NCBI GenBank assembly: GCA_030626405.1
Contig: DAOUPA010000001.1
Span: 1,437 to 65,436 of the forward strand
DNA length: 64,000 nucleotides
Origin: Planctomicrobium sp.
GTDB lineage: Bacteria; Planctomycetota; Planctomycetia; Planctomycetales; Planctomycetaceae
Direction of reading: 5' to 3'
Under the pieces are notes generated by a model. It had not been told where the DNA came from, did no database searches, and saw only the letters and a program-made list of their open reading frames with translations. Position numbers and translations under genes: made by a program. Of the stretch, positions 23,910-39,074 are shown in pieces. Positions within the stretch are counted from its first letter, which is position 1, and each line of letters starts with the position of its first letter.

Positions 23910-25043
23910 ATGACCGCCGCTGAAATCGCATCGCAGATCAAAGAGGAAGCGAAGCAACTCGGCTTCTCTCTGGTCGGCATCGCGCCTGCGGGCCGTCCGG
24001 ATACGCTCGACTTTCTACATCAGTGGCTTTCTAAAGGTCACGCCGGCGAAATGGGCTACATGGAGCGACGGAAAGATGCTTACGAGCACCCAAGTGGTGT
24101 TCTCCCCGACGTACGCAGTCTGATTCTTGTTGGCCTGAATTACTTCCATCACGAAGCTCAAGCAACTGCTCCTGGAGTTGGACGGATTGCGAAGTACGCA
24201 GCCGGGTCCGCTGACTATCACGATTTGATTCGAAAAAAACTCAAGCAACTCTCTGCCGTGCTGCATGAATCGTCGCCGGAGTGCCGGAGTCGAGTAATCG
24301 TCGACACGGCCCCCTTGCTGGAGCGGGACTTCGCAAGAATCGCTGGCCTGGGTTGGTTCGGAAAGAACACGATGCTGATCAATAAATGGAAAGGAAGCTA
24401 TTTCTTCCTTGGAGGTATTCTCACAGATGTTGAGTTACCGCCCGATCAACCTCACCTGACCGACCACTGCGGAACGTGTACTCGATGTCTCGACGCTTGC
24501 CCGACGGACGCTTTCGAGGCTCCCTATGTACTGGATGCCCGAAAGTGTATCTCGTATCTGACAATCGAGTTACGGGGGCAGCCCATTCCTGAATCATTAC
24601 GCTCAGGCATGAAGGACTGGCTCTTTGGCTGTGACGTTTGCCAGGATGTTTGCCCGTGGAATCGAAAAGCAACAAACACCGAAGAGCCTGCACTTTTGCC
24701 AGATCTTTCCTCTGCTCGCGATGCTGCTTCGTTTTTGATAATCACCGAAGAAGAGTTCCGGGCGCGTTATAAACGGACCCCATTTTCTCGTCCTAATCGG
24801 GAAGGGTTGGCGAGAAATGCAGCCATCGTGCTGGGGAATTCGGGTGATGATCAGTGGGTCCCTGCCCTGAAGACGGGACTTGATGACAGTTCACCCTTAG
24901 TTCGTGGTGCATCGGCGTGGGCGTTGGGGGAAATTCTGAATGCCCAGACGAGAAAAATCCTTGAGAACAGACGCGCAGTTGAAACGGATGATACGGTTCT
25001 GTCGGAGATTGACCGTGTACTTCGCTCACAAGTGGAGCATTAG
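23910..25043 (+). CDS. queG: tRNA epoxyqueuosine(34) reductase QueG
   Basis: 377 aa. Motifs: GLGWFGKNTMLI, CGTCTRCLDACPTDAF, CISYLTIE, CDVCQDVCPWNR. The C-terminus has a HEAT-like repeat. Confidence 0.9.
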   Translation: MTAAEIASQIKEEAKQLGFSLVGIAPAGRPDTLDFLHQWLSKGHAGEMGYMERRKDAYEHPSGVLPDVRSLILVGLNYFHHEAQATAPGVGRIAKYAAGSADYHDLIRKKLKQLSAVLHESSPECRSRVIVDTAPLLERDFARIAGLGWFGKNTMLINKWKGSYFFLGGILTDVELPPDQPHLTDHCGTCTRCLDACPTDAFEAPYVLDARKCISYLTIELRGQPIPESLRSGMKDWLFGCDVCQDVCPWNRKATNTEEPALLPDLSSARDAASFLIITEEEFRARYKRTPFSRPNREGLARNAAIVLGNSGDDQWVPALKTGLDDSSPLVRGASAWALGEILNAQTRKILENRRAVETDDTVLSEIDRVLRSQVEH

Positions 25044-25240: not shown

Positions 25241-26347
25241 ATGGCGGATAATAAGAAACTTACAACTGCAGAAATTCTTGCCCTCGCCCGCCAGCAAAAC
25301 AGCGGTGGAGGTGCGGATGCCGATGACGCTTCGGAGAGCAGCACTGCTCCTGAAACTTCTCAGGCTCCTGTTCCGACTGAAGATAAAAAACCTGCGGCAG
25401 CCCCAAAGTCAACTGCTGACATTCTCGCTGCTGCTCGTACTCAGGGGGGTGAGGCCGAGAAGCCGAAACCTGCCACGGCGCCAGGGTCAACAGCAGATAT
25501 CCTGGCTGCTGCCCGTGCTCAGGGAGGCGGGGCCCAAGGCGGAGGAGCGCCAAAGCCAAAGCCTGCTGCCACTGCACCTAAGTCGACCGCTGATATCTTG
25601 GCGGCTGCTCGTGCTGGAGGCGGAAGTGCTGCGAAAGCGGCACCTGCTGCAAGTCAGCCGAAGGTGAAAAAAGCTGAAGCCGCACCTGTCGGTGATCGTC
25701 CTGCATTGAAGGATATGGTTGCCGCGGTCAAAGAGGCTCAGGCTTCAGGTGGTCCGGCAAAGCCGAAGCTTCCTGTTGGTAAGCCTGCACCTGCGAAACC
25801 AAAGTTTCCGAGCAAGAAAGAAAAGGTTGAGCGTCGAAAATTTGTTGCTACCTTGGCTGTCCTTCTGCTCACACCTTTTGTGGTGGCATGGTCTTCGATG
25901 AGTGCGATTGCGGCAATCTGGTCGCTCGGAATTGCTCGATTCATGATGCCGAACATGATGTTGGAGCTGCCATCCAAATTTAAGGTTGGCCCCCCTTCTG
26001 ATTTCCCACCAGGCAGTGTCTCTGCAAAGTTTAAGGCAAGCCGTGGGATTTGGATTATCAATACTGATGAGTATGAAGGTCAGGGCATTATTTACGCGTT
26101 GGCTTCCGTTTGTACTCACCTTGGGTGTACTCCTAACTGGCTCGAAGGGGAACAGAAATTCAAATGTCCCTGTCACGGGTCAGGTTTTTATATCACTGGA
26201 GTGAACTTCGAAGGCCCTGCACCTCGCCCCTTGGAGCGAGTTGGAATTAGCATTGCGGATGATGGAATGCTAGAAGTTGACAAAAGTGTGAAGTTTCAGG
26301 AAGAGCTGGGTCAGTGGTCTGACTCCAAATCTTACGAAGTGGCATAA
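25241..26347 (+). CDS. Rieske [2Fe-2S] subunit of a cytochrome b6f/bc-type complex, with a long repeat-containing N-terminal extension
   Basis: 368 aa. The Rieske boxes are CTHLGC and CPCHGS. A twin-arginine motif (ERRKFV) followed by a TM helix occurs only at about residue 198. It is preceded by an Ala/Pro/Lys-rich region with repeated STADILAAAR modules. Confidence 0.9.
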   Translation: MADNKKLTTAEILALARQQNSGGGADADDASESSTAPETSQAPVPTEDKKPAAAPKSTADILAAARTQGGEAEKPKPATAPGSTADILAAARAQGGGAQGGGAPKPKPAATAPKSTADILAAARAGGGSAAKAAPAASQPKVKKAEAAPVGDRPALKDMVAAVKEAQASGGPAKPKLPVGKPAPAKPKFPSKKEKVERRKFVATLAVLLLTPFVVAWSSMSAIAAIWSLGIARFMMPNMMLELPSKFKVGPPSDFPPGSVSAKFKASRGIWIINTDEYEGQGIIYALASVCTHLGCTPNWLEGEQKFKCPCHGSGFYITGVNFEGPAPRPLERVGISIADDGMLEVDKSVKFQEELGQWSDSKSYEVA

Positions 26348-26414
26348 GGCCTTGAGCGAAGCTCGATTCGTTTCCAGTGTTTTACTAACTCAATAGTGTC
26401 CGTCAGGTAACTGC

Positions 26415-27188
26415 ATGTCGGTAACTGAATATATCCGGAAGTCACAGATTTGGCGAAGTATTTTTCGTCATCCTGCCCCATATGATCGCCGCAACCGTGC
26501 GGTTGTCATTCTGACGAACTTCTTCCTCCACCTGCACCCGGTCTCTGCAAAGAAGGGCGGAATTGCCCTGTCGTACACGTGGTGCATGGGTGGAATTACT
26601 TTTTTCCTATTCCTTGTCGAAACGCTCACTGGCGTCCTGTTGATGTTCTACTATCGACCGACGCTGGAGTGGGCATTTACAGATATTCGTGCCCTGCGAG
26701 ACGTGAACACTCTGGGGATCATGCGTGAGATTCACCGCTGGGGGGCGCACGCGATGGTGATCACCGTGTGGCTCCATATGTACCGGGTGTTTCTGACGGG
26801 GAGTTACAAGCCTCCGAGGGAATTCAACTGGGTCATTGGTGTCTTGCTACTCGTGTTGACTCTACTATTATCGTTTACCGGTTACCTGCTTCCGTGGGAT
26901 CAGCTAGCCATCTGGGCGATTACGGTCGGTTCGAACATGGCTCGTGCGACACCTTTCCTTGGTCATGAAGGTCCGGGGTTCCAGCTACTTAATGTTGGTG
27001 GGTTTGATTTAATCACAAATGCAAGTGATGCGAGATTCCTGCTCCTCGGGGCACGTACAGTGGGTGAAGAAACCTTGAATAGGTTCTACATTCTGCACTG
27101 TGTTGCAATTCCGATTGTGGTTTCAGGGCTGATCGCCGTTCACTTTTGGCGCGTTCGTAAAGATGGTGGGATTAGTCAACCGCTATAG
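26415..27188 (+). CDS. Cytochrome b, b6-type (N-terminal four-helix half)
   Basis: 257 aa. Helix B has H-x13-H (EIHRWGAHAMVITVWLH). Helix D has H-x14-H (LHCVAIPIVVSGLIAVH). WCMGGIT aligns with the YCLGGIT of cytochrome b6. Confidence 0.9.
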   Translation: MSVTEYIRKSQIWRSIFRHPAPYDRRNRAVVILTNFFLHLHPVSAKKGGIALSYTWCMGGITFFLFLVETLTGVLLMFYYRPTLEWAFTDIRALRDVNTLGIMREIHRWGAHAMVITVWLHMYRVFLTGSYKPPREFNWVIGVLLLVLTLLLSFTGYLLPWDQLAIWAITVGSNMARATPFLGHEGPGFQLLNVGGFDLITNASDARFLLLGARTVGEETLNRFYILHCVAIPIVVSGLIAVHFWRVRKDGGISQPL

Positions 27189-27270
27189 GTTTTTGACTGG
27201 TTGTCAGCTTCACCACGAAGGTGGGGCCGTTTTAAGTTTGTACATTGGTAGAGTGCGGTATTAGGGAATT

Positions 27271-28635
27271 ATGAATCCTCATCCCGATTTAACGGTTGGC
27301 GTGATTCACGGCCTTGGCTGGCTGTACCTGCTGTTGTTCTTTTTGAACCTCGGCTGGACAGTCCGTAGCTATAAGGTTGATGGTCAATACGAAAGCCTGA
27401 TGGGCATCAAGCATGCCCCCAAGGCTTTGGTGTGGGCAGCTTACTCTGCGCTTTTACTGATCGTGACGCTGGTTCACTTTGCGGTTGAAAGCGACGCATC
27501 GAATTTCAAACTGAGACTCCCCGAATTCATTAAAAATCCGGCAGACGCCGTGATTGCGAATCCGATTAGTTTTTTCTGCCTGTCGATAGTCATTTACGCT
27601 GCCATCATCCTGCTTCGCAAATGGTGGGTCAAGCCGACAGTCTCTTGGGTTTTATTCAACCTGAGCGTGCTGTTCATTACTGTGAGTATGACAGACTACG
27701 ACTTCCGTAAAATTGTCGGCAAGCCCGATAACGTTCCTATTGTCGGGATGCTCTTCCTGGTCGGCTTCACGACATGGCTATACTTCTCAAAAGCCAATGA
27801 GAACGACCGGCGAATTGCCGAAGGACTTCCGGTTCGCGAGAAGGAACTCTCTGACCAGGTTCTTGTCTGGCCGGATCTGGTCTACACTGAAATGATCTGT
27901 ATGATCCTGATTACGGCACTTCTCATTGTCTGGGGTGTCGCACTTCAAGCTCCACTCGAAGAACCTGCCTCAGCAGTGAAGACCCCGAATCCTTCAAAAG
28001 CTCCGTGGTACTTCCTCGGACTGCAGGAAATGCTCGTCTACTTTGACCCCTGGATGGCTGGTGTTGTTCTGCCGAGTGTGATTCTCGTCGGACTGATGGC
28101 AATTCCATACATTGACTTCAACACCAAGGGCAACGGATATTACACATTCAATGAACGTAAGTTTGCAATTTCAACATTCCTATTTGGCTTTATGCCGCTG
28201 TGGACCGGAATGATCGTTCTCGGAACCTTCATTCGTGGACCGAACTGGAACATGTTTGGACTCTATGAATACTGGGATGCACACAAGCTTGAGGTGCTGA
28301 ACAATGTCAACCTGTCCGATTATTTCTGGCTGAGTTTCCTGGAACTTCCACTTCCGAAACCTGACCCGCAAGCGGGGTTTTTCTCGCAAGCTGGTTCAAT
28401 CCTTTTACGTGAGTGGACCGGAATCCTTGTGATTTTGTTTTACTTATTCGCGATTCCACCACTATTGGCAGTCACCATTTTCAAGAAGTTCTTCGTGAAA
28501 ATGGGATTTGTCCGGTTTATGGTGCTTGCGAACCTGTTTCTTTTTATGGCCTCACTACCATTGAAGATGGTGCTGCGGTGGGTCTTTAATCTGAAATACA
28601 TCGTTTCGATTCCCGAGTGGGTCTTTAACATCTAA
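27271..28635 (+). CDS. Subunit-IV-like (cytochrome b C-terminal half) membrane protein, enlarged
   Basis: 454 aa with about 10 TM helices. KAPWYFLGLQEML corresponds to the PEWYF motif of subunit IV and the cytochrome b C-terminal half. The first roughly 220 aa are extra TM helices. Confidence 0.75.
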   Translation: MNPHPDLTVGVIHGLGWLYLLLFFLNLGWTVRSYKVDGQYESLMGIKHAPKALVWAAYSALLLIVTLVHFAVESDASNFKLRLPEFIKNPADAVIANPISFFCLSIVIYAAIILLRKWWVKPTVSWVLFNLSVLFITVSMTDYDFRKIVGKPDNVPIVGMLFLVGFTTWLYFSKANENDRRIAEGLPVREKELSDQVLVWPDLVYTEMICMILITALLIVWGVALQAPLEEPASAVKTPNPSKAPWYFLGLQEMLVYFDPWMAGVVLPSVILVGLMAIPYIDFNTKGNGYYTFNERKFAISTFLFGFMPLWTGMIVLGTFIRGPNWNMFGLYEYWDAHKLEVLNNVNLSDYFWLSFLELPLPKPDPQAGFFSQAGSILLREWTGILVILFYLFAIPPLLAVTIFKKFFVKMGFVRFMVLANLFLFMASLPLKMVLRWVFNLKYIVSIPEWVFNI

Positions 28636-28708
28636 GTTAAGTTGATTTCTGTCGGCACATGTCAGTTGTGACAGGTTCGCAGGCAGAGCAGAGCAACGTT
28701 GAATATCA

Positions 28709-31700
28709 ATGCCAGCAAGTGAACAGTATTGGCGAAGTCTCCCGCAAATGCACAAAGTATTTGCGGCGAGTGCCGTGTTGCTACTCGGTACGACTTTGTT
28801 AATGATGTACAAAGACGAATCCCGTTCCTGGAAGCACTACCAGAAGCAGGCGGAGGCGTACCGCATACAGCGTATTGAACAGGAGCGCGAGCAATACAAC
28901 GATGCCGATTATCTCAAGAAAGTAAAAGAACTCGACGAGAGCGTGAAGCTCCTCCAAGCGGATTGGGACGCGAGATCCTCCGAAATTCGAGATCTTGAGT
29001 CGGGTCTCAAGGCATTAGAAGGTCAAGTTCAAATTCTCAAAGCAAGGTCGAAGACGAAAAACGCCGAGCGAGATAAAGCGAGAGCTGATTACGACATTAA
29101 GGTTCGAGATGAATCGAGCGAAAGTGAACTTGCTGAAGCTCTGGAAACCTTCGAACAGGCAAAGCTCATTGCAGATGAAACTGCACTTGAATCTGAGCAA
29201 GCGTTAGCAGAATTTGAAGCATCTAAGAGTGAACTCAACAAACAACGCAGCAAACTCGATGCTGCGAAAGACGCACTTGCTGAGACGACTGCGGCTGAGA
29301 AAGCCTTGGTGGAACAGAAGAATCTGCTTAAGCCAGATAATGGTTTTGTCGCTTTTAAACGCTGGGCGAAGGAACTCCCGATTCTGGAAGGGTTCAATCC
29401 TCATATCAAAATTCAATACGATTGGCCATCAGGCTTGGAACAGGAATTAGGCTCTGCCGTTGTTGATCGCGTTGACCGTTGCCGAACTTGTCACGTCTTT
29501 ATTGATGACTTCAGCGTCATTCGCGAAGGTGGTCAAGTTGTTGCAATGAAGCAGAGTTATCCGGACGGAGATTTTCCACAGCCGTTCGTATCCCATCCAA
29601 ATCCCGATCTCTTCCTCACGGCAGCTAGTCCTCACCCTGTCAATGACTTTGGGTGTACAATCTGCCACGCTGGCGATGGATCAGGCACAAGTTTTCAAAA
29701 CGCAGAGCACACGCCTGGGAATCCAGTCGTCGCTGCGAAATGGGAAAAAGAACATGATTGGCATTCCAATCACTTCTGGGAAGCACCACAACTTCCTGGG
29801 AGTTTCATCGAGTCGAGTTGCCTGCAATGTCACCACGACGTGGTTGAACTTGGTGTGAACCCCACATTTGGAGCGACTGCTCCGAAGCTCTTCAAAGGCT
29901 GGGAAACCATTCGGGATTATGGCTGCTTTGGTTGCCATGAAGTGAATGGCTTCGATGGAATCACACCGATTGGTCCCGACCTGCGGCTAGAACCAAACTC
30001 ACCGGAAGAGCTCGCCGTGATCGAGGCCGATCCGAATATGATCCCAGGAAAAATGCGAAAGGTCGGACCATCGCTTCGCCATATCGCCGATAAAACGACC
30101 CCGGAATTCATTGCGTACTGGACAGAAGAGCCAAGCCGGTTCCGACCGACAACGCGAATGCCGCAGTTCTTTGACCTGACCAATCAGCACGATGCCATGG
30201 CAGCACTGTTACAGCCAATGGAGCTTGCTGGCATTGCGAAGTACCTCGAAGCAAAATCTCAGAAGTTCGAGTACCTCTCACCAAGCAACGACTACAAACC
30301 TGATCCAAAACGTGGCGAAGAGCTCTTCTCCAAACGCGGGTGTCTGGCATGTCACAGCAAGCAAGGCGAAGCCTTTGACGGGATTGCTGCGAACTTCGGT
30401 CCAGACCTTTCCAGAATACACGAGAAAATCAAACCCGGTGAGGATGGCTTTAAGTGGATGTACACTTGGATCAAAGAGCCAAGTCGGTATCACACTCGTA
30501 CGCGAATGCCAGATCTTTATCTGAAGCCATACAACGAAGGTGACACTCACATCGACCCGGCAGCTGATATCGCGGCGTTTCTACTTCAAGGTGGAGCCAA
30601 AGAATTCCCTGCCTTGCCGACACCGAAACCGAATCTCGGATTGGTCGCAGCGCATGATTTCACCCTGAAAGACGCAAAAGAACTTGGCCTCAGTGATGAT
30701 CAATTCCGTGGCATTCTGGTTCAGGAAGTGATCCAGGGAAGTCCTGCTTCTCGTGCCGAAGTGAAAATTGGAGAGGACTGGGAAGAACGTCCTCTCTCTG
30801 TCGGCGATGTTGTCACCAGTTTCAACGGAACAGCAGTCAAGTCTCCGGAACACCTGAAAGAACTCGAAGCTGCTTCCAGTGTCAATGAAATCGTGACCTT
30901 AGATATCCTTCGAAACGGTCGCGAACTGACCGCTCGGTTAACTGTCACAACGCCACTGGATGATCTTGTCCGCTTGTTCTTGGGAAAAGCCCTTGATAGT
31001 GCAGGTTTGAAAAAGGCACTCGCAGAACGAAAGTACCCTGTCACCGCCGAAATGTTTGCTGACGGTGCATTGCTTCCAGACGTTGTTAAAGGTGATGAAG
31101 TCGAACTCGCACCTTTGAGTGCAGATGAGGAAGTGACGCCAGAGCAGTGGGAAGAACGAAAACTCGTCTATCTCGGTCGGCGAACAATTTCGCGATATGG
31201 CTGCTATGGTTGCCACGACATCCCAGGCTTTGAAACGGCACGTCCCATCGGAACTGCACTTCAAGATTGGGGACGAAAAGACACCTCGAAACTTGCTTAC
31301 GAGCACATTCACGAGTACCTGCATCATCACGGCGAACCAGTTGCCAAGTCAGAAGATGGCCATAATTCACACGCTCATGGTTCTCACAATGACGATGCAC
31401 ATGCGGCACTCGGAACAAGCACAGCTTCTCGGATGGAGAAAATTGTTGCGGACAAAGAAGCTGGTGGCGATGTCAGCGAACAAGATCTGACTGAAGCGAT
31501 GCTTTACAAAAGTGTCATTTCGCATGGTCGATCCGGATTCCTCTGGCAAAAACTTCGTCAGCCTAGAAGTTACGATTACAAGAAGACCGAAACAAAGGGT
31601 TGGGACGAACGGCTACGAATGCCGAAGTTCCCACTAGATACAGATCAGATCGAATCTGTCTCGACGTTTGTTCTGGGGTTGATCGCTCATCCTCCTTCGG

Positions 31701-32881
31701 AAGAATTCCAGTACCGACCAGATAAATCCAAAGAAGCAATCTTTGAAGGAGAACGCCTCCTCGCCAAATTCAATTGTACAGGCTGCCATGTTCTTGAAAT
31801 GGGTTCAGTCGAGTTTGAGTACGATCCAGCAGTCCTGGCGATCAAAGGTCAGGAAGTTGCAGACGCAGATCGTGCAGCCTTTGATTTACTCTCGCACATC
31901 AAGCCAATCGGGCGAGGTGGACAAGGTGCAACTGGTGAAACGACAGAGGATGGTTCTCTGGTTTACCGAGCCAACGGATTCATTCAGGGGATCCCTGATC
32001 CAGATGAAGAAGACCCTGAGTTCCGCTTCTTCTCATACCGTTTCTGGGATGGTTTCCAACTCGCTGATGGAAAGTACATCATGCCGAGTGAAGGAGTTCA
32101 AATCGCCGAAGGCCAGCTTCGCAAGTTTATCGATGGTCGGGGTGGAAAGTTTGCCGAGTGGCTCGCTGGCAAGCTCGCTCCAGAACTGAGCAAAACGCCT
32201 GGCGGTACCGACTACAACGCAGCCTGGCAGGCATCAGTTCCTCCGTTAACTGCCGAAGGTTTCAAAGTGCAGACTCCGTGGCTGTATCAGTTCCTCAAAA
32301 ACCCTGAGCAATTGCGACGGACAACGGTTCTTCGAATGCCTCGATTTAACATGAGCGATGAAGAAGCTCAGACGTTGGCAAACTACTTCGCCGCAAAGGA
32401 TGGGGTTCCGTTCCCATATCAATCAATTCCACCAAAAGAATTGGGATATCAGGTAGAGCAGGCTGCGACGTACAACGCGAAATATCCGGGTGCCGAATAC
32501 GATTACCTCACAGCTTCCTGGAATGTTTTGAACGGTCCATTGTGTCGGAAGTGTCACAATGTCGGTGGAAACGTCGTCAATGACCCGAAGCAGGTTAAAG
32601 GTCCGAATCTTCAACGCACCGAAAGAAGATTACGACCGGAATGGACTCAGCTGTGGGTCTACAAACCAATGTGGGTTTACCCCTACACATCCATGCCAGA
32701 GAACTTCCCAGCCGGAAAACCTGCCGACATGAAGAAGCTTTTTGGTGGTGAGAACCCTCGCCAGGCTCAGTCGATCATTGACGCACTCTTTAACTACACA
32801 CAGCTGATCGAAATCCATGGTCCGACAACTTACAATCCAGAGTCAGCCGCCCCTCCAACGAAAGCAGGTGGCGCAGAATGA
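28709..32881 (+). CDS. Membrane-anchored octaheme cytochrome c with coiled-coil, PDZ and His-rich segments
   Basis: 1390 aa. It has an N-terminal TM helix and about 180 aa of heptad-like charged sequence. There are eight CxxCH motifs (CRTCH, CTICH, CLQCH, CFGCH, CLACH, CYGCH, CTGCH, CRKCH). A PDZ-like segment (GILVQEVIQGSPASRAEV...GDVVTSFNG...LDILRNGRE) is also present. Confidence 0.85.
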   Translation: MPASEQYWRSLPQMHKVFAASAVLLLGTTLLMMYKDESRSWKHYQKQAEAYRIQRIEQEREQYNDADYLKKVKELDESVKLLQADWDARSSEIRDLESGLKALEGQVQILKARSKTKNAERDKARADYDIKVRDESSESELAEALETFEQAKLIADETALESEQALAEFEASKSELNKQRSKLDAAKDALAETTAAEKALVEQKNLLKPDNGFVAFKRWAKELPILEGFNPHIKIQYDWPSGLEQELGSAVVDRVDRCRTCHVFIDDFSVIREGGQVVAMKQSYPDGDFPQPFVSHPNPDLFLTAASPHPVNDFGCTICHAGDGSGTSFQNAEHTPGNPVVAAKWEKEHDWHSNHFWEAPQLPGSFIESSCLQCHHDVVELGVNPTFGATAPKLFKGWETIRDYGCFGCHEVNGFDGITPIGPDLRLEPNSPEELAVIEADPNMIPGKMRKVGPSLRHIADKTTPEFIAYWTEEPSRFRPTTRMPQFFDLTNQHDAMAALLQPMELAGIAKYLEAKSQKFEYLSPSNDYKPDPKRGEELFSKRGCLACHSKQGEAFDGIAANFGPDLSRIHEKIKPGEDGFKWMYTWIKEPSRYHTRTRMPDLYLKPYNEGDTHIDPAADIAAFLLQGGAKEFPALPTPKPNLGLVAAHDFTLKDAKELGLSDDQFRGILVQEVIQGSPASRAEVKIGEDWEERPLSVGDVVTSFNGTAVKSPEHLKELEAASSVNEIVTLDILRNGRELTARLTVTTPLDDLVRLFLGKALDSAGLKKALAERKYPVTAEMFADGALLPDVVKGDEVELAPLSADEEVTPEQWEERKLVYLGRRTISRYGCYGCHDIPGFETARPIGTALQDWGRKDTSKLAYEHIHEYLHHHGEPVAKSEDGHNSHAHGSHNDDAHAALGTSTASRMEKIVADKEAGGDVSEQDLTEAMLYKSVISHGRSGFLWQKLRQPRSYDYKKTETKGWDERLRMPKFPLDTDQIESVSTFVLGLIAHPPSEEFQYRPDKSKEAIFEGERLLAKFNCTGCHVLEMGSVEFEYDPAVLAIKGQEVADADRAAFDLLSHIKPIGRGGQGATGETTEDGSLVYRANGFIQGIPDPDEEDPEFRFFSYRFWDGFQLADGKYIMPSEGVQIAEGQLRKFIDGRGGKFAEWLAGKLAPELSKTPGGTDYNAAWQASVPPLTAEGFKVQTPWLYQFLKNPEQLRRTTVLRMPRFNMSDEEAQTLANYFAAKDGVPFPYQSIPPKELGYQVEQAATYNAKYPGAEYDYLTASWNVLNGPLCRKCHNVGGNVVNDPKQVKGPNLQRTERRLRPEWTQLWVYKPMWVYPYTSMPENFPAGKPADMKKLFGGENPRQAQSIIDALFNYTQLIEIHGPTTYNPESAAPPTKAGGAE

Positions 32882-33744
32882 TGATTCGCATGCAAACTAA
32901 ACAGATAGTATTTTCCGGACTTTTGTTGTCGACTCTCTTCGTCGCTGGATGTGGTTCATCCGTACGAAAAGAAGCCCTCGGCGGTGGAGCCTTAACGCCT
33001 GTGACTATCACACTTTTGCGTGAAGGTGGATCAGGTGATTCAGAGGCGGAATCCGCAGAATCGGCTGGCCCGAAAATCACAGAATTCGGAATGGTTCGCG
33101 GAAAAATTTCCGTCGATGGAAGCTTGCCACAACTTGCTGATGTGAGTGCGAAAGGTCAGGCGAAAGATGCCATCTGCGGAGAGAAGGGAATTAAGAATGA
33201 ATCCGTTACAGGAGAAAATGGTGGCTTGGGGAATGTCTTCATCTACCTGAAAAAGGTTCCAAACGTTGATGTTCCACCTCCATCAACAGATCAGATCGTC
33301 ATGGACCAGCAAGGATGCATGTTCGTTCCGCACGCACAGGTTGTTCAGGTTGGTCAACCAGTCCTGCTTAAAAATTCTGATCCAATTGCCCACAATGTGA
33401 AACTACAAGGTGGTTCGAATTCTCTTGCAGAAACGATTTCGCCAAACAATGCCGCCAACGTCGAATACAAATTTCAGTTCAGTGATCGAAAGCCAACCGG
33501 CGTTGTCTGTGACTTTCATACATTCATGTCTGCTTACGTCATGCCTGTCGACCATCCATGGGCTGCGGTGACAAATCCTGACGGGACGTTTGAAATACCA
33601 AATGTTCCTGCTGGAAAGGTAGAGTTCGTCATCTGGCACGAGAAGCTCGATTATATCGAACGCTCATATTCGGTTGATGTTCCAGCAAACGGTGATGCAG
33701 CGCCTATCGAGATCACAGTTAATGCGTCGAAGTTGTCCAGTTAA
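32878..33744 (+). CDS. Cupredoxin-like (type-1 copper) lipoprotein, paralog 1
   Basis: 288 aa. The lipobox is FVAGC. The cupredoxin pattern is FVPHAQVVQVGQPVLLKNSDPIAHNV ... CDFHTFM (C-x2-H-x2-M). A C-terminal beta-sandwich follows (NPDGTFEIPNVPAGKVEF). Its ATG overlaps the upstream stop (ATGA). Confidence 0.7.
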   Translation: MMIRMQTKQIVFSGLLLSTLFVAGCGSSVRKEALGGGALTPVTITLLREGGSGDSEAESAESAGPKITEFGMVRGKISVDGSLPQLADVSAKGQAKDAICGEKGIKNESVTGENGGLGNVFIYLKKVPNVDVPPPSTDQIVMDQQGCMFVPHAQVVQVGQPVLLKNSDPIAHNVKLQGGSNSLAETISPNNAANVEYKFQFSDRKPTGVVCDFHTFMSAYVMPVDHPWAAVTNPDGTFEIPNVPAGKVEFVIWHEKLDYIERSYSVDVPANGDAAPIEITVNASKLSS

Positions 33745-33775
33745 ACCATTATCGAAAAGAGACACGGAAACAGTA

Positions 33776-34747
33776 ATGTTTGCTCGGTTTCAATTACAAT
33801 TTGTTCTTCTACTTACGGTTGCGATCTTTTCAGGTTGTACGCCGCAGTTTCGTCGTGAAAAGACGGAAGTGAAGTCGGCATCGGATGTCGTGATTCATTT
33901 CGATGATCTTTCCTCTTCAAACAATTCCGAAGAGACTCCCGATGAAGCCGCCACACCTGCAACAACTCCGACAGCAGGTAATGAGTCAACTACAGCGACG
34001 ACTCCTAAAAAAGAGATGGTCGCAGCGACCACGACCTCAAAGCCTGACGTTGCAAAACAAGCCCCGACCACTACGGGCTACACTGGACCAGCGAAGTTCG
34101 TTGGTCGAGTCGTAGTGAAAGGGGATGTTCCTCTGTTTTCAGCACTTCTCGCTAAAGGTGCGGCGACAAAAGATATGTTTTGCTCAGAAATGGCTGTCCC
34201 TAACGAGACGGTCATCTCCAAGGATGGCGGGTTAGGGAACGTTTTCGTCTACATGAAAAAAGCTCCAAGAAAAGGTGTTCCTGAATACTCTGGCGAGCCG
34301 TTTGTCGTCAATCAAAAAGGGTGCATCTTCATTCCTCACGCACAAATTGTCAGAGTTGGGCAGCCTTTCATTTTGAAGAACTCAGACCCCGTTGCACACA
34401 ATGTCAGGTACAACGGATTCGCATCACAATTTAACGACACCGTCGTCTCTGGTTCGACAGATGGTTTGACAAAGGTCATTGAGTTCCCTGAGCGACTCCC
34501 AGCCGGGATGGTGTGCGATTTTCACAATTGGATGTCAGCCTATGTTTTGCCTGTTGATCATCCGTGGGCTGCTGTGACCGATGCCGATGGGAATTTCGAA
34601 ATCACAAATCTTCCAGAAGGGAAGTGGGATTTCGTCATTTGGCATGAGAAGGCGTTGTATATCGAACGATCATTCAAGGTCACCGCCGCACCTAACACCC
34701 TTATTGAAAAAGTTTTTGAAGTCAATGCGTCAAAACTGTCGCAGTAA
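33776..34747 (+). CDS. Cupredoxin-like (type-1 copper) lipoprotein, paralog 2
   Basis: 323 aa from ATG 33776. The lipobox is FSGC, followed by a Thr/Pro-rich linker. It has the same motifs as paralog 1: FIPHAQIVRVGQPFILKNSDPVAHNV ... CDFHNWM. Confidence 0.7.
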   Translation: MFARFQLQFVLLLTVAIFSGCTPQFRREKTEVKSASDVVIHFDDLSSSNNSEETPDEAATPATTPTAGNESTTATTPKKEMVAATTTSKPDVAKQAPTTTGYTGPAKFVGRVVVKGDVPLFSALLAKGAATKDMFCSEMAVPNETVISKDGGLGNVFVYMKKAPRKGVPEYSGEPFVVNQKGCIFIPHAQIVRVGQPFILKNSDPVAHNVRYNGFASQFNDTVVSGSTDGLTKVIEFPERLPAGMVCDFHNWMSAYVLPVDHPWAAVTDADGNFEITNLPEGKWDFVIWHEKALYIERSFKVTAAPNTLIEKVFEVNASKLSQ

Positions 34748-34769
34748 CCACAAGTATCGAGTTTTTCCT

Positions 34770-36215
34770 GTGAGAACTTTTTTCACACTATCGATGATCT
34801 GCCTGATCTCCGGTTGCGGAGGACAGCCTGAATTTTCGCACAGCGAGAAGTTTCAGACGCTGAAGCCGTACGCACAAATTTACGTGGATCAGGTTCTCGA
34901 CAACTACTTCGGATCACCATCTGACATGGTTGCCTGGGACAAACTGCCACTGGAACTTCACTACGGTCAAGGGACTGTTGTTGAAGCGAGTGGGCGAATG
35001 TTGACGGTCGAACTTCAAGCCCCACATGCCGAAATCACTGCTGGCACAGAAGTTCTTTGGGACAGTGGCATTCTCAATGACAAAGACAGCGCCTGGATTC
35101 TTGAATGGGACGAAGCAAAGCACCAAGCAAAATTGGAATCACCACTGGCAACCAATCCTGAAGTTGGTGATGCGGTCATTCTCGGACCTGGACAAATTCT
35201 GGCAACTGGGCGAATGCTCTATGCAGAACATTGTCAGCATTGTCACGGCGTTGCTGGCGACGGGAATGGACCGACAGCTCCTTATTTGAATCCACGACCT
35301 CGCGATTACCGCAAAGGGATTTTTAAATTCACAACGACACAAAGTTCCAAACGAGCCAGTCGTGAAGATTTGTCGCGTATCGTGGAAGACGGAATTCCTG
35401 GAACGTATATGCCTTCATTCAAATTATTGACTGAAGACGAGATGACCTCCATCATCGAGTACGTCATGTGGCTCTCGATGCGGGGTGAACTTGAAAACCA
35501 ACTCATCGGACTTCTGGCAGACAGCTATTCCGTTGAAGCGGTAGAAGATCGGATCGCTGGTGGGGATGAGACTTCTGATACAATTCATCAAGAATTCATT
35601 GATGCAGTCAACGATCCCGATTCATTTCCGTTTGAAGTCGACACAATCGTTTCTCGATTTACATCGGAATGGGTCTCGTCTCAGGAACCTGATGCAGAAG
35701 TTCAGCCTTTGACTCCGCGCACCCCTTCCTCTGATGAGTCGATCGCGAAAGGCCGCGAATTGTATTTGAAACCAAGCCTCAAGTGTGCTCAATGCCACGG
35801 CGAAGCTGGTCTCGGTGACGGATCACAAACTTTTGCTGTCTCCAAAGATGCGGCAGGACAGGATAATCTGACGCCTGGTCTCTACGACACTTGGGGAAAC
35901 CTGGTGAAACCCCGAAATCTTCACTCTGGAATATATCGTGGTGGTCGTCGACCGATCGATCTTTACTCTCGTATTTATGCAGGAATCAAAGGCACACCGA
36001 TGCCTGCGTTCTCTTCAACATTGCTCCGTAAATCTAATCCAGAAGATTCCGGATCGGAAATGACGGATGAAGATATCTGGCATCTCGTCAACTACATCTA
36101 CAGCATTCCATTCGAAGATGTCAAAGCGGGGCAGGGTGGATCGTCTATTGCAAATCCAGTGAAAGACGCCAATACCGCCAGTGAAGAAGATAGCGAAGAA
36201 GTTGCAGTAAATTAG
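34770..36215 (+). CDS. Diheme cytochrome c lipoprotein
   Basis: 481 aa from GTG 34770. The leader is (M)RTFFTLSMICLISGC. It has two CxxCH motifs (CQHCHGVAGDGNG; CAQCHGEAGLGDG) and GIPGTYMP / GIKGTPMP Met-ligand contexts. The longer ORF from 34581 overlaps the upstream gene. Confidence 0.8.
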   Translation: MRTFFTLSMICLISGCGGQPEFSHSEKFQTLKPYAQIYVDQVLDNYFGSPSDMVAWDKLPLELHYGQGTVVEASGRMLTVELQAPHAEITAGTEVLWDSGILNDKDSAWILEWDEAKHQAKLESPLATNPEVGDAVILGPGQILATGRMLYAEHCQHCHGVAGDGNGPTAPYLNPRPRDYRKGIFKFTTTQSSKRASREDLSRIVEDGIPGTYMPSFKLLTEDEMTSIIEYVMWLSMRGELENQLIGLLADSYSVEAVEDRIAGGDETSDTIHQEFIDAVNDPDSFPFEVDTIVSRFTSEWVSSQEPDAEVQPLTPRTPSSDESIAKGRELYLKPSLKCAQCHGEAGLGDGSQTFAVSKDAAGQDNLTPGLYDTWGNLVKPRNLHSGIYRGGRRPIDLYSRIYAGIKGTPMPAFSSTLLRKSNPEDSGSEMTDEDIWHLVNYIYSIPFEDVKAGQGGSSIANPVKDANTASEEDSEEVAVN

Positions 36216-36346
36216 TTTTTTGTTTTGAGTTGTATAGTGCCCGCGAATAAAGTTGTCGCATTCCTCGCAGTATTGTCCCGCGAGGTAGAATTTGGCAATG
36301 TTGTCCATGAGTGGTATAAACCTTGTGACCTGATGGGGTTATTCAA

Positions 36347-37228
36347 GTGAAGTGGTTTTGGTGTCTATTTTTTGCATTTTGGCCAATTGTCGCAATTGTC
36401 GTCTGCTTGTTGGCGCCAGGTAACAACTGGTGGTTTCCAGGTGAGGCTGCGTCTCCGCTTGGTCGGCGTATTGATGACTTGTTCTACATGATCTTGTGGA
36501 TCACTTCGATCACATTCGTGGGAACCCAACTCGTTCTGGCGTACGTGTTGTTCAAAGGTGCGAGTGATACCGAACCAGGTACAGCGAATGAGAAAGCTTG
36601 GTTCTCTCATGGAAGCCATAAACTGGAAGTTATCTGGTCGAGCGTTCCAGCAGTGATCCTGCTGTTCATTGCGTTCTATCAACTTGATGTCTGGGCTGAA
36701 TACCGTGTCAAAGATGCGTTTCCACGCAAACGTATGGAAGCTGTCTTTGAACGAATTCATCAGGACCGTCAAAAGAACGACAGTCTCGCATTGGCAGAAG
36801 TCACAGCACGACAATTCGAATGGCGAATTCGCTATCCCGGCTTCAACGCAGATGGCACGCTCAAGGCACTCATGCCAGACCCACAACCAACCGATTTGTA
36901 CGCAGTCAACGATCTTCACTTACCTGCCAGTGCACCAGTGATGATCAACCTGAGAACTCAGGATGTCCAACACTCATTCTTCTTACCAGAACTACGTATC
37001 AAACAAGATGCAGTGCCTGGATTAGTCATTCCAATTTGGTTTGAAGCGGACCAACAACGTTCCTATCAACTGCTCTGTGCTGAACTTTGCGGTTGGGGAC
37101 ATTACAAAATGAATGCCCGGTTCGTCGCAGAATCGGACGAACAGTTTATCGAATACCTCCGTCAACTCGAACGCGAACAAAACGAAGATCGAGTCGACGA
37201 CGCACCAGACACGGATGAAGAAGAGTAA
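36347..37228 (+). CDS. ctaC: Cytochrome c oxidase subunit II (CuA; no fused cytochrome c domain)
   Basis: 293 aa with two N-terminal TM helices. The CuA site is HSFF ... CAELCGWGHYKM. Confidence 0.92.
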   Translation: MKWFWCLFFAFWPIVAIVVCLLAPGNNWWFPGEAASPLGRRIDDLFYMILWITSITFVGTQLVLAYVLFKGASDTEPGTANEKAWFSHGSHKLEVIWSSVPAVILLFIAFYQLDVWAEYRVKDAFPRKRMEAVFERIHQDRQKNDSLALAEVTARQFEWRIRYPGFNADGTLKALMPDPQPTDLYAVNDLHLPASAPVMINLRTQDVQHSFFLPELRIKQDAVPGLVIPIWFEADQQRSYQLLCAELCGWGHYKMNARFVAESDEQFIEYLRQLEREQNEDRVDDAPDTDEEE

Positions 37229-37289
37229 TACTGAAAGAGCAATCTTTCGAGTCTTCTTTTTCGTTAGTCAATACATTTGGAGTGAGGCG

Positions 37290-39074
37290 GTGAGTTCAGT
37301 CGCAGCCACAACAGAAACTGCAGAACACGGTCATCATGCACACAATGATGATCTACTTGCGCTCTTAAAAGCAGCACCATTCTGGTCAACCGATCATAAA
37401 GTGATCGGTATCCAGTTTATGATGACGACACTTCTCATGTTGATGGTCGGTGGTGCGCTCGCGCTGGGGGTTCGCTGGCAGTTGGCATTTCCCTGGGAGA
37501 ACATGCCGTTTTTCGGAGCATTGGTTCCGGCGACAGCAGGCGGACAAATACCGCCTGAGTTCTACACAATGCTCTTTACGATGCATGCAACGGTGATGAT
37601 CTTCCTTGTGATCATTCCAATTCTTGCAGGAGCATTCGGAAACTTCCTGATTCCGCTGATGATCGGTGCGGACGACATGGCGTTCCCGATGTTGAACGCC
37701 TTGAGCTACTGGTTCATGTGGCCTGCAATCGCCTGTTTTGGATGTAGCTTTTTCTTCGGAGGTGGTCCAGCTGCAGGGTGGACATCATACCCAGCTCTTT
37801 CTGCCCTTTCTCAAGCTGCTCCAGGCTCTGGACACGCACAAACATTCTGGTTGTTGGGAGTTACATTTGTCGGGTTCTCGTCGATGATGGGTTCGATCAA
37901 CTACATGACGACGATCATCAATATGCGGGCACCTGGCCTGACGCTCTTCCGGATGCCACTGACAATTTGGTCAATGTTCATCACAGCAATTTTACAGGCG
38001 TTCGCGTTGCCGGTCCTCACCGCCGCAGGCTTCATGCTTGTCACCGACCGGATCTTGGGCACTTGCTTCTTCGTTCCGGCTGGACTGATCGTTAATAACG
38101 CCGATCCAACAGTCGGCGGCGGACAAACGCTGCTTTGGCAGCACTTGTTCTGGTTCTATTCTCACCCTGCGGTGTACATCATGTTGCTGCCTGCAATGGG
38201 TATGGTTTCGGACATGCTTGCCTGCATGTGTCGTAAGCCAATCTTCGGATACAAGCCAATGGTTTATTCCATGTCTGCGATTGCTGGCCTAGGGTTTATC
38301 GTGTGGGGGCACCACATGTTTACCTCTGGAATGAATCCCGCGCTCGGGATGACATTCATGATTTCGACAGTCATGATCGCGTTGCCATCAGCGGTGAAGG
38401 TGTTCAACTGGATCGGTACGATCTGGGGCGGGAAACCGGAATTCAACGTTGTCTTCCTGAATTGTATTGCATTCGTTTCGATGTTCATCGTCGGTGGACT
38501 TTCCGGAATTTTCATGGCTGCCGTGCCTGTCGACATTTATATTCACGACACATACTTCATCGTTGCTCACTTCCATTACGTGCTGTTCGGGGCAACGTTG
38601 TTTGGAGTCTTTGGAGCCATCCACTTCTGGTATCCGAAAATGTTCGGTCGCTACATGAGTGAAGGCTGGGGCAAGCTGCACTTCTTCTTGACCTTTGTCG
38701 GCTTCAATGGAACATTCTTCCCCATGCACCTGCTTGGTGTTGCTGGGATGCCTCGTCGATATGCCGATCCTTACCTATACCCTTATCTGGAACATTTTCT
38801 CCCGATGAATCAATTCATGACGATTTGTGCTGCCCTCATGGGATTCGCACAATTCATCTTGATCGGGAATTTCGTTTTGAGTTGGTTCTTCGGTAAAAAG
38901 GCCGGGCGGAACCCTTGGAATGCAAATGGTCTCGAATGGGCAACTCCATCGCCTCCTGGTCATGGAAACTTCGACATTCCACCGGTTGTTTACCGTGGAC
39001 CGTACGAATACGCAAATCCAGATACCGAAGCTGACTTCTGGCCACAAACGCAGCCGCCGAATCCAGCGACTTAA
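37290..39074 (+). CDS. ctaD: Cytochrome c oxidase subunit I (A-type heme-copper oxidase)
   Basis: Motifs: WFYSHPAVYIMLLP, GHHMF, HFHYV and 12 or more TM helices. The GTG start at 37290 follows a GGAG/GAGG motif. The ORF from 37113 overlaps ctaC. Confidence 0.95.
   Translation: MSSVAATTETAEHGHHAHNDDLLALLKAAPFWSTDHKVIGIQFMMTTLLMLMVGGALALGVRWQLAFPWENMPFFGALVPATAGGQIPPEFYTMLFTMHATVMIFLVIIPILAGAFGNFLIPLMIGADDMAFPMLNALSYWFMWPAIACFGCSFFFGGGPAAGWTSYPALSALSQAAPGSGHAQTFWLLGVTFVGFSSMMGSINYMTTIINMRAPGLTLFRMPLTIWSMFITAILQAFALPVLTAAGFMLVTDRILGTCFFVPAGLIVNNADPTVGGGQTLLWQHLFWFYSHPAVYIMLLPAMGMVSDMLACMCRKPIFGYKPMVYSMSAIAGLGFIVWGHHMFTSGMNPALGMTFMISTVMIALPSAVKVFNWIGTIWGGKPEFNVVFLNCIAFVSMFIVGGLSGIFMAAVPVDIYIHDTYFIVAHFHYVLFGATLFGVFGAIHFWYPKMFGRYMSEGWGKLHFFLTFVGFNGTFFPMHLLGVAGMPRRYADPYLYPYLEHFLPMNQFMTICAALMGFAQFILIGNFVLSWFFGKKAGRNPWNANGLEWATPSPPGHGNFDIPPVVYRGPYEYANPDTEADFWPQTQPPNPAT

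Follow-up and report, generated by a model that had tools for sequence, protein, structure and literature searches.

An HtrA-Type PDZ Domain Inserted in an Octaheme Cytochrome c of a Planctomycete Respiratory Operon

Introduction

What does a PDZ domain do in the middle of a respiratory multiheme cytochrome? The question is raised by a stretch of DNA of 64,000 nucleotides (nt) from Planctomicrobium sp. (assembly GCA_030626405.1, contig DAOUPA010000001.1, positions 1,437 to 65,436 of the forward strand), the whole of which is called the window here. The window encodes an octaheme c-type cytochrome of 1390 amino acids (aa), and a first-pass annotation, made from the sequence and without database searches, had noticed a PDZ pattern of the HtrA type between the heme motifs of this protein. 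PDZ domains bind C-termini, and PDZ1 of the protease DegP binds hydrophobic C-termini. If the domain docks a partner, it would represent a new way in which bacteria organize electron transfer between complex III and complex IV, by means of a generic peptide-binding module within the cytochrome itself, as opposed to freely diffusing carriers or fixed subunit interfaces; if it is only structural, it would be a routine example of domain insertion.

Identity and Extent of the PDZ Domain

Amino acids 641-749 of the octaheme cytochrome form a true and complete PDZ domain of the HtrA (Do-family) PDZ1 type, and this assignment was confirmed far beyond chance. In the whole protein, the Pfam model PDZ_2 (PF13180) matched aa 664-746 with 41.2 bits against a cut-off of 27 (E 2.1e-10), and the models PDZ_6 and PDZ reached 24.3 and 17.5 bits, both under their cut-offs. 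With the isolated segment of 81 aa, all three models scored above their cut-offs (PDZ_2, 47.0 bits; PDZ_6, 34.4 bits; PDZ, 25.6 bits). The first-pass annotation had proposed scans against PF13180, PF00595 and PF17820 together with a fold prediction as checks of the HtrA-type pattern, and the pattern was upheld by both. The nucleotide position that it had given for the domain, 30700-30950, was right, whereas its residue numbers 667-747 were off by one, because the peptide in question occupies aa 666-746; similarly, the core that it had outlined was correct, whereas the real domain is larger. The family hidden Markov model (HMM) places the domain at aa 642-750, and the alignment of homologs sets its start at about aa 641, with a strand that contains N-L-G-L and then the short helix FTLKDAKELGL, as in PDZ1 of HtrA proteins.

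Structural comparison led to the same assignment. For aa 633-759, AlphaFold2 with an alignment of 45 sequences gave a model with a predicted local distance difference test score (pLDDT) of 82.4, a predicted template-modeling score (pTM) of 0.71 and a PDZ-like fold. The top Foldseek matches of the model in the PDB were DegQ (3stj), MucD (8k2y), DegP (3cs0 and 3otp) and the PDZ domain of streptococcal HtrA (7l71 and 9pno), with the HtrA-family PDZ1 matches showing E values of about 1e-6, TMq of 0.67-0.75, TMt of up to 0.83, a probability of 1.00 and 24-29% identity. When a profile of the family PDZ was compared with the PDB, it matched DegP-like proteins (E 6e-24) and DegQ (E 1e-19), with the alignment extending from the LGV loop to the last strand. 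The NCBIfam model degP_htrA_DO also matched aa 646-748, via model positions 240-329 of 434, which are its PDZ1 part, with 36.7 bits against a cut-off of 416. The Pfam matches of the 1390-aa protein included no trypsin or peptidase family; its identity as an HtrA/Do-family serine protease was rejected, since a trypsin-like domain is missing and the degP_htrA_DO match is confined to the PDZ1 part. Within the window, the family HMM detected no second PDZ domain and no HtrA gene.

One element of the domain is specific to this family, namely the loop at aa 687-697, which is predicted to form a β-hairpin (strands at positions 52-55 and 58-61 of the AlphaFold2 model) and differs in length between clades.

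Insertion Between Two Heme Domains

The octaheme cytochrome contains eight CxxCH motifs (C258, C316, C371, C406, C545, C832, C1023 and C1279), the first four closely spaced (C258-C406) and the other four in wider-spaced domains. As the first-pass annotation had described, such motifs lie on both sides of the PDZ domain, five upstream and three downstream, and the PDZ domain is periplasmic because it is located between covalent heme sites. It adds about 113 aa to the linker that joins the heme-5 and heme-6 domains, directly after the class I domain of heme 5, whose C-terminal helix, ...DPAADIAAFLLQGG, runs into it. In the alignment with PDZ-less homologs, the end of the heme-5 domain (...DPAADIAAFLLQGGxxEFPxxxx) joins the helix xLDELVxLYL directly; the PDZ domain was thus inserted as one clean unit. 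The distance between hemes 5 and 6 is about 170 residues in the basal form and about 287 in PDZ-bearing forms, and the heme spacing is otherwise highly conserved. The insertion is no assembly artifact, because more than 100 homologs, assembled independently, have the same PDZ at this site; complete genomes of Thalassoglobus and Planctomicrobium are among their sources.

The residue numbers used here refer to the longer open reading frame (ORF). This numbering is supported by the homologs, because they keep the N-terminal 13 residues of that frame with the consensus MPAxDQYWRxLxxMHKVF.

Distribution in the Planctomycetaceae

A protein search returned 1712 homologs of the octaheme cytochrome, of which all those with names belonged to the Planctomycetaceae. 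Among cultured representatives, Thalassoglobus (73% identity to the window protein) and Planctomicrobium (57%) bear the PDZ, and Maioricimonas and Fuerstiella have PDZ-less homologs. Some homologs already carry the NCBI name "PDZ domain-containing protein", so that the domain is visible in public annotation. A non-redundant set of 161 full-length sequences was divided according to the place of the domain: 106 sequences have it after heme 5, eight after heme 6 and one at both sites, and the remaining 46 have none. The family therefore offers a natural experiment, in which one operon occurs with a PDZ after heme 5, after heme 6, at both places or at neither, and its cultured members bring the role of the domain within reach of experiment.

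The PDZ domains after heme 6 were upheld by Pfam (34.7 bits in sequence P0102 and 33.4 bits in P0108) and are of two types. The first type is 30-37% identical to the heme-5 type and has the same long loop, a resemblance in sequence that suggests intragenic relocation or duplication. The second type shows a canonical ...SPAARAGLKPGD... sequence, which suggests a separate capture. On the tree of the homologs, the heme-5 PDZs form one large clade and smaller groups, with the heme-6 PDZs placed elsewhere; this neighbor-joining, midpoint-rooted tree is approximate and supports only that there are at least two PDZ sites and at least two PDZ sequence types.

The genomic setting was compared in 77 related Planctomycetaceae loci (L001-L077), taken as a synteny sample after a scan of species-representative genomes that had given at least 537 candidate stretches. 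Wherever these loci reach far enough, the operon order is identical, with or without the PDZ. In the 77 loci, no link was found between PDZ presence and the gene content of the operon, that is, one versus two cupredoxin paralogs or extra genes.

The linkers of the scaffold also carry other, lineage-specific inserts of 100-230 residues, namely between hemes 6 and 7 in L055 and L059 and between hemes 5 and 6 in L029, L042 and L070; four further sequences (P0037, P0048, P0062 and P0101) have inserts between hemes 7 and 8. The inserts between hemes 4 and 5 and between hemes 7 and 8, which are rich in Ala, Glu and Leu and appear helical by eye, gave no match to the family PDZ HMM, and no Pfam scan of them was made. 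Pfam found no PDZ in the heme 5-6 inserts of L029 and L052 or in the heme 6-7 insert of L055, the last of which showed a weak, sub-threshold match to a peptidyl-prolyl isomerase family (Rotamase_2, E 0.0012); the insert of L059 is nearly identical to it and was not scanned. After heme 6, a near-invariant motif, EHIxEYLHHHGEP, was observed (nt 31300-31420, aa ~865-905), the triple His of which could bind metal or heme. In the window protein this motif is followed by a His-rich loop of low confidence (DGHNSHAHGSHNDDAH), and the same loop is the second site of PDZ insertion in other lineages, making it an insertion hot spot.

Conservation of the PDZ Domain

The PDZ domain is under purifying selection. 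In the comparison with the closest relative (L001, 88% identical overall), the PDZ had a ratio of nonsynonymous to synonymous substitution rates (dN/dS) of 0.14, and the heme domains had one of 0.04. The domain has been kept intact down to about 35% domain identity. G644, which belongs to the carboxylate-binding loop, is invariant both in 45 diverse sequences and in all 124 PDZ sequences at the heme-5 site of the full set; G668 is invariant or nearly so, R682 is near-invariant, and R735 is present in 86% of the main clade. Outside the PDZ, only P749, D752 and R755 co-vary with its presence, and all three lie in the adjoining helix, a pattern that speaks for anchoring on the local scale only. 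No remote cytochrome residues that co-vary with the PDZ, as would be expected of a docking surface, were detected, in an analysis of limited power since most PDZ-bearing sequences belong to one clade.

Docking Module or Structural Element

Judged by gene order, the octaheme protein probably provides the cytochrome c subunit of a Rieske/cytochrome b complex whose operon also encodes the aa3 oxidase: it is encoded on the same strand in one operon with the Rieske protein and cytochrome b, and it has CxxCH motifs and a membrane anchor. In view of the purifying selection and the invariant loop glycine, we tentatively favor the idea that the PDZ serves the periplasmic cytochrome of the bc complex as an accessory docking module that is competent to bind a ligand. 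It would bind the hydrophobic C-terminus or an exposed β-strand of a partner polypeptide and would thereby keep either this partner or the complex's membrane core close to hemes 5 and 6. Such a module would not be essential to the electron path, because roughly one in four sampled homologs has the same operon order without it, and its role would need no exact geometry, because in other lineages a PDZ sits in the next linker.

Several observations weigh against this view. No C-terminus encoded in the operon co-varies with PDZ presence among the 77 loci, and no ligand was identified; the tails of cytochrome b, the Rieske protein and the cupredoxin-like proteins do not differ in lineages that lack the PDZ. 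The evolution of the PDZ is about three times as fast as that of the heme domains, and, as 46 of the 161 non-redundant homologs do without it, the domain may be dispensable. In a model of aa 225-1390 (1166 aa; pLDDT 74, pTM 0.70), the pLDDT of the PDZ rises to 89-95, compared with 82 for the domain modeled alone, and it could thus be packed as a fixed structural element instead of acting as a free clamp. Finally, the invariant loop glycine could be kept for folding alone.

The main rival to a docking role is that the PDZ is a structural or oligomerization module without a peptide ligand, either a rigid spacer packed against the neighboring helix and heme domains or a means of PDZ-PDZ pairing in a dimeric bc complex, as in MamP, whose dimer was demonstrated to be held mainly by PDZ-PDZ contacts (PMC3971196). 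We consider this possible, if doubtful. The gain in model confidence within the larger protein is consistent with it, as are the three residues of the following helix that co-vary with the PDZ and the lack of a ligand candidate that does so. On the other hand, the glycine of the carboxylate loop is invariant across very divergent sequences, the occurrence of the PDZ at two different linkers argues against a role in precise packing, no remote residues co-vary, and the PDZ of MamP is not among the closest solved relatives.

Candidate Ligands

For a docking module, the ligand was sought among the last ten residues of the Rieske protein, both parts of cytochrome b, the octaheme cytochrome, the cupredoxin-like proteins, the diheme cytochrome c and CoxII in the 77 loci. 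The Rieske tail (...DSKSYEVA in the window) shows a K-versus-A difference that follows phylogeny and not the PDZ. The tail of the C-terminal part of cytochrome b (...YIVSIPEWVFNI) is near-invariant, IPE[WFY][VF][FL]N[IV], in the loci in which the complete end of the ORF was read. Hydropathy indicated four helices after PWY245 of this protein, and because four helices are counted after the Qo PWY loop, the tail ...IPEW(V/F)FNI is probably periplasmic. Among the periplasmic C-termini of the operon, the cytochrome b tail, ...PEWVFNI, fits a ligand of the HtrA type best and the cupredoxin tails fit worst; it is only a candidate, because it is equally invariant in loci without the PDZ.

A bolder version of the docking idea would be that the Planctomycetaceae have repeatedly captured HtrA-type PDZs as a scaffold that clamps the C-terminus of a partner and so hard-wires the bc complex to the aa3 oxidase; the partner would be the cytochrome b tail, a lipoprotein electron carrier or an oxidase subunit. 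The fact that the bc complex and the oxidase share a conserved operon itself suggests that electrons pass between them along a hard-wired path. We judge the scaffold idea unlikely; if true, a bacterial respiratory chain would for the first time be seen to assemble on a PDZ scaffold, in analogy with the PDZ scaffolds at eukaryotic membranes.

The first-pass annotation had suggested that the PDZ could tether a neighboring redox carrier, with the tails ...NASKLS(S/Q) of the two cupredoxin-like lipoproteins, or alternatively the tail of the diheme cytochrome, as the bound peptide. Its reading of the tails was accurate, as the two proteins end in VNASKLSS and VNASKLSQ, and several circumstances seemed to favor a tether: the genes of the carriers directly follow that of the octaheme cytochrome and are retained in the operon, the two paralogs of the window share one terminal motif, and C-termini are what PDZ domains generally bind. 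The tethering itself did not withstand comparison and is very unlikely. In PDZ-bearing loci the ends of the cupredoxin tails vary freely (KLAG, KLAK, LAAP, LTGS, KLVP, LAGK and KLEKK are examples), with S, Q, G, K, P, N, D and others as the last residue, and the A(S/A)KLxx ending recurs in the PDZ-less loci L053, L054, L056 (FEVDAAKLAE) and L044. The tails end in a polar or charged residue, whereas characterized HtrA PDZ domains prefer hydrophobic termini; the ligands of the DegS PDZ, for instance, end in YQF or YRF (titles of PDB entries 3gdv, 3gdu and 6ew9). The A(S/A)KLxx ending looks more like the end of a last β-strand than like a free tail. A tether via the diheme cytochrome fares no better, because the tails of the diheme cytochrome and of CoxII are acidic and variable.

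That the PDZ is a neutral passenger, encoded by a piece of an HtrA gene that came to lie in a linker tolerant of inserts and has stayed there without serving any function, would agree with the many lineage-specific inserts accepted by the scaffold (between hemes 4 and 5, 5 and 6, 6 and 7, and 7 and 8), with the many homologs that lack the domain and with its faster evolution, but is highly improbable given its intactness in 106 non-redundant sequences even at the lowest domain identities, the purifying selection that its dN/dS reveals, its invariant motif residues and the gain of a PDZ at a second site at least once more.

The Octaheme Cytochrome and Its Operon

The features of the operon and of the PDZ region are given in Table 1. 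The heme domains of the octaheme cytochrome matched Pfam Cytochrom_C, Cytochrome_CBB3 and Cytochrome_C7 in a scan of the whole protein. At its N-terminus, a hydrophobic transmembrane helix (about aa 18-35) was read from the sequence, and between this anchor and the first heme a charged, heptad-like coiled-coil segment of about 180 aa was observed (aa ~40-215, nt 28826-29353), in a region with a weak SMC match (aa 45-251). This coiled-coil stalk could keep the heme domains far from the membrane or mediate dimerization. The heme scaffold had no solved relative in a sequence search of the PDB (E < 0.1), and none in a Foldseek search with the 1166-aa model, in which the top matches were all PDZ domains; its structure would hence be informative in any case.

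Table 1. Coordinates of the features in the window, with the strand and the evidence for each.
Feature	Position (nt)	Strand	Evidence
Rieske iron-sulfur subunit, first gene of the operon	25241..26347	+	Pfam Rieske, NCBIfam b6f and bc1 Rieske models, synteny
Cytochrome b, N-terminal part, b6-like	26415..27188	+	Pfam Cytochrome_B, 144 bits
Cytochrome b, C-terminal part/subunit IV-like protein, 10 predicted transmembrane helices	27271..28635	+	Pfam Cytochrom_B_C
Octaheme c-type cytochrome, 1390 aa	28709..32881	+	ORF, eight CxxCH, Pfam, homologs with conserved heme spacing
Class I cytochrome c domain around heme 5, aa 534-627, CLACH at C545	30308..30589	+	PF00034, 46 bits
Complete HtrA-type PDZ1 domain, aa 641-749	30629..30955	+	Pfam, family HMM, AlphaFold2, Foldseek, PDB profile
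Carboxylate-binding loop N642-L643-G644-L645 (X-hydrophobic-G-hydrophobic)	30632..30643	+	Aligns with LGV/LGI loop of DegP-like and DegQ PDZ1
Pfam-visible PDZ core, aa 666-746 (peptide FRGILVQEV...ELTARLTV)	30704..30946	+	
Family-specific 11-residue loop IGEDWEERPLS, aa 687-697	30767..30799	+	Gap in DegQ/DegP alignments
Helix PLDDLVRLFLG, aa 749-759, directly after the PDZ	30953..30985	+	Helix at positions 117-126 of the AlphaFold2 model
Heme-6 motif CYGCH (C832), first heme motif downstream of the PDZ	31202..31216	+	
Cupredoxin-like lipoprotein, copper-ligand pattern HNV...CDFHTFM, ends VNASKLSS	32878..33744	+	
Second cupredoxin-like lipoprotein, paralog, HNV...CDFHNWM, ends VNASKLSQ	33674..34747	+	
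Diheme class I cytochrome c lipoprotein	34581..36215	+	Pfam Cytochrom_C, two stretches
CoxII, with CuA motif	36347..37228	+	Pfam COX2, COX2_TM
CoxI	37113..39074	+	Pfam COX1

The operon comprises nine genes on the forward strand (window positions 25241-39074), for the Rieske protein, the split cytochrome b, the octaheme cytochrome c, the cupredoxin-like proteins, the diheme cytochrome c, CoxII and CoxI. A gene for epoxyqueuosine reductase (QueG) with C-terminal HEAT repeats lies directly upstream on the same strand (23910-25043). In the C-terminal part of cytochrome b, five helices precede and two follow three subunit IV-like helices, and the Qo motif is of the APWY type.

The cupredoxin-like lipoproteins matched no Pfam family, and a weak amicyanin match was obtained (E 0.0024). 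One or two copies occur in nearly all related loci that reach past the cytochrome gene, and none was detected in L075. Judged by their type-1 ligand pattern, H...C-x2-H-x2-M, the two paralogs probably belong to an undescribed family of blue-copper electron carriers that are tethered to the membrane. The true start of the second is probably the internal MFARFQ.... The ORFs of CoxII and CoxI share 116 nt (37113-37228), and the true CoxI start probably lies further downstream than that of the listed ORF, because the first ~90 residues of the latter are of low complexity.

Comparison with Known Systems

The closest relatives of the domain are the PDZ1 domains of the HtrA/Do proteases (DegP, DegQ, MucD, AlgW and DegS), which are likewise periplasmic and belong to the same fold and sequence family, with 24-29% identity. 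The match is full-length and includes the carboxylate loop, the short helix (fT..A..LGL), the GSPA..A helix and the (L/V)xRxG strand. In contrast to these proteases, the window protein has no protease domain, its PDZ lies inside a multiheme cytochrome, and an extra hairpin is present at aa 687-697.

The combination of a PDZ with c-type heme domains (CxxCH) in one polypeptide on the periplasmic side is known from MamP and MamE. MamP is built as PDZ-MCR-MCR, where MCR denotes a magnetochrome domain, and its crystal structure has been reported, with the PDZs forming a dimer and an iron crucible; MamE, built as protease-MCR-MCR-PDZ, has also been characterized (PMC3971196). The first-pass annotation knew of no characterized cytochrome c with an internal PDZ domain; it would not be accurate to say that no characterized cytochrome c has a PDZ at all. 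The heme domains here are class I and c7-like, whereas those of MamP and MamE are minimal magnetochrome units of about 20 residues; the PDZ here is internal, whereas it is N-terminal in MamP and C-terminal after the protease in MamE; and the genes here stand in an operon of Rieske/cytochrome b and aa3 oxidase, whereas theirs stand in a magnetosome island. MamP was absent from the 60 best PDB relatives of the PDZ profile. An identity of the MamP/MamE type was hence rejected on the grounds of the heme families, the respiratory neighbors and this absence.

With regard to the respiratory context, the octaheme cytochrome resembles the multiheme or diheme cytochrome c subunits of non-canonical Rieske/cytochrome b complexes, such as actinobacterial QcrC of bcc-aa3 supercomplexes, in being a membrane-anchored cytochrome c encoded by the side of Rieske and cytochrome b with the oxidase genes adjacent, and it showed a weak match to the QcrC model. 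It differs from subunits of the QcrC type in its eight hemes, its coiled-coil stalk of about 180 aa and its inserted PDZ, and its membership in the complex is deduced from gene order. In the searchable literature, no PDZ was found in a planctomycete cytochrome or inserted in the multiheme cytochrome of a Rieske/cytochrome b (bc) complex. Proteins that combine a PDZ with c-type hemes were known already; what sets the present one apart is the type of the heme domains, the internal position of the PDZ, the respiratory operon in which it occurs and its affinity to PDZ1 of the HtrA proteases.

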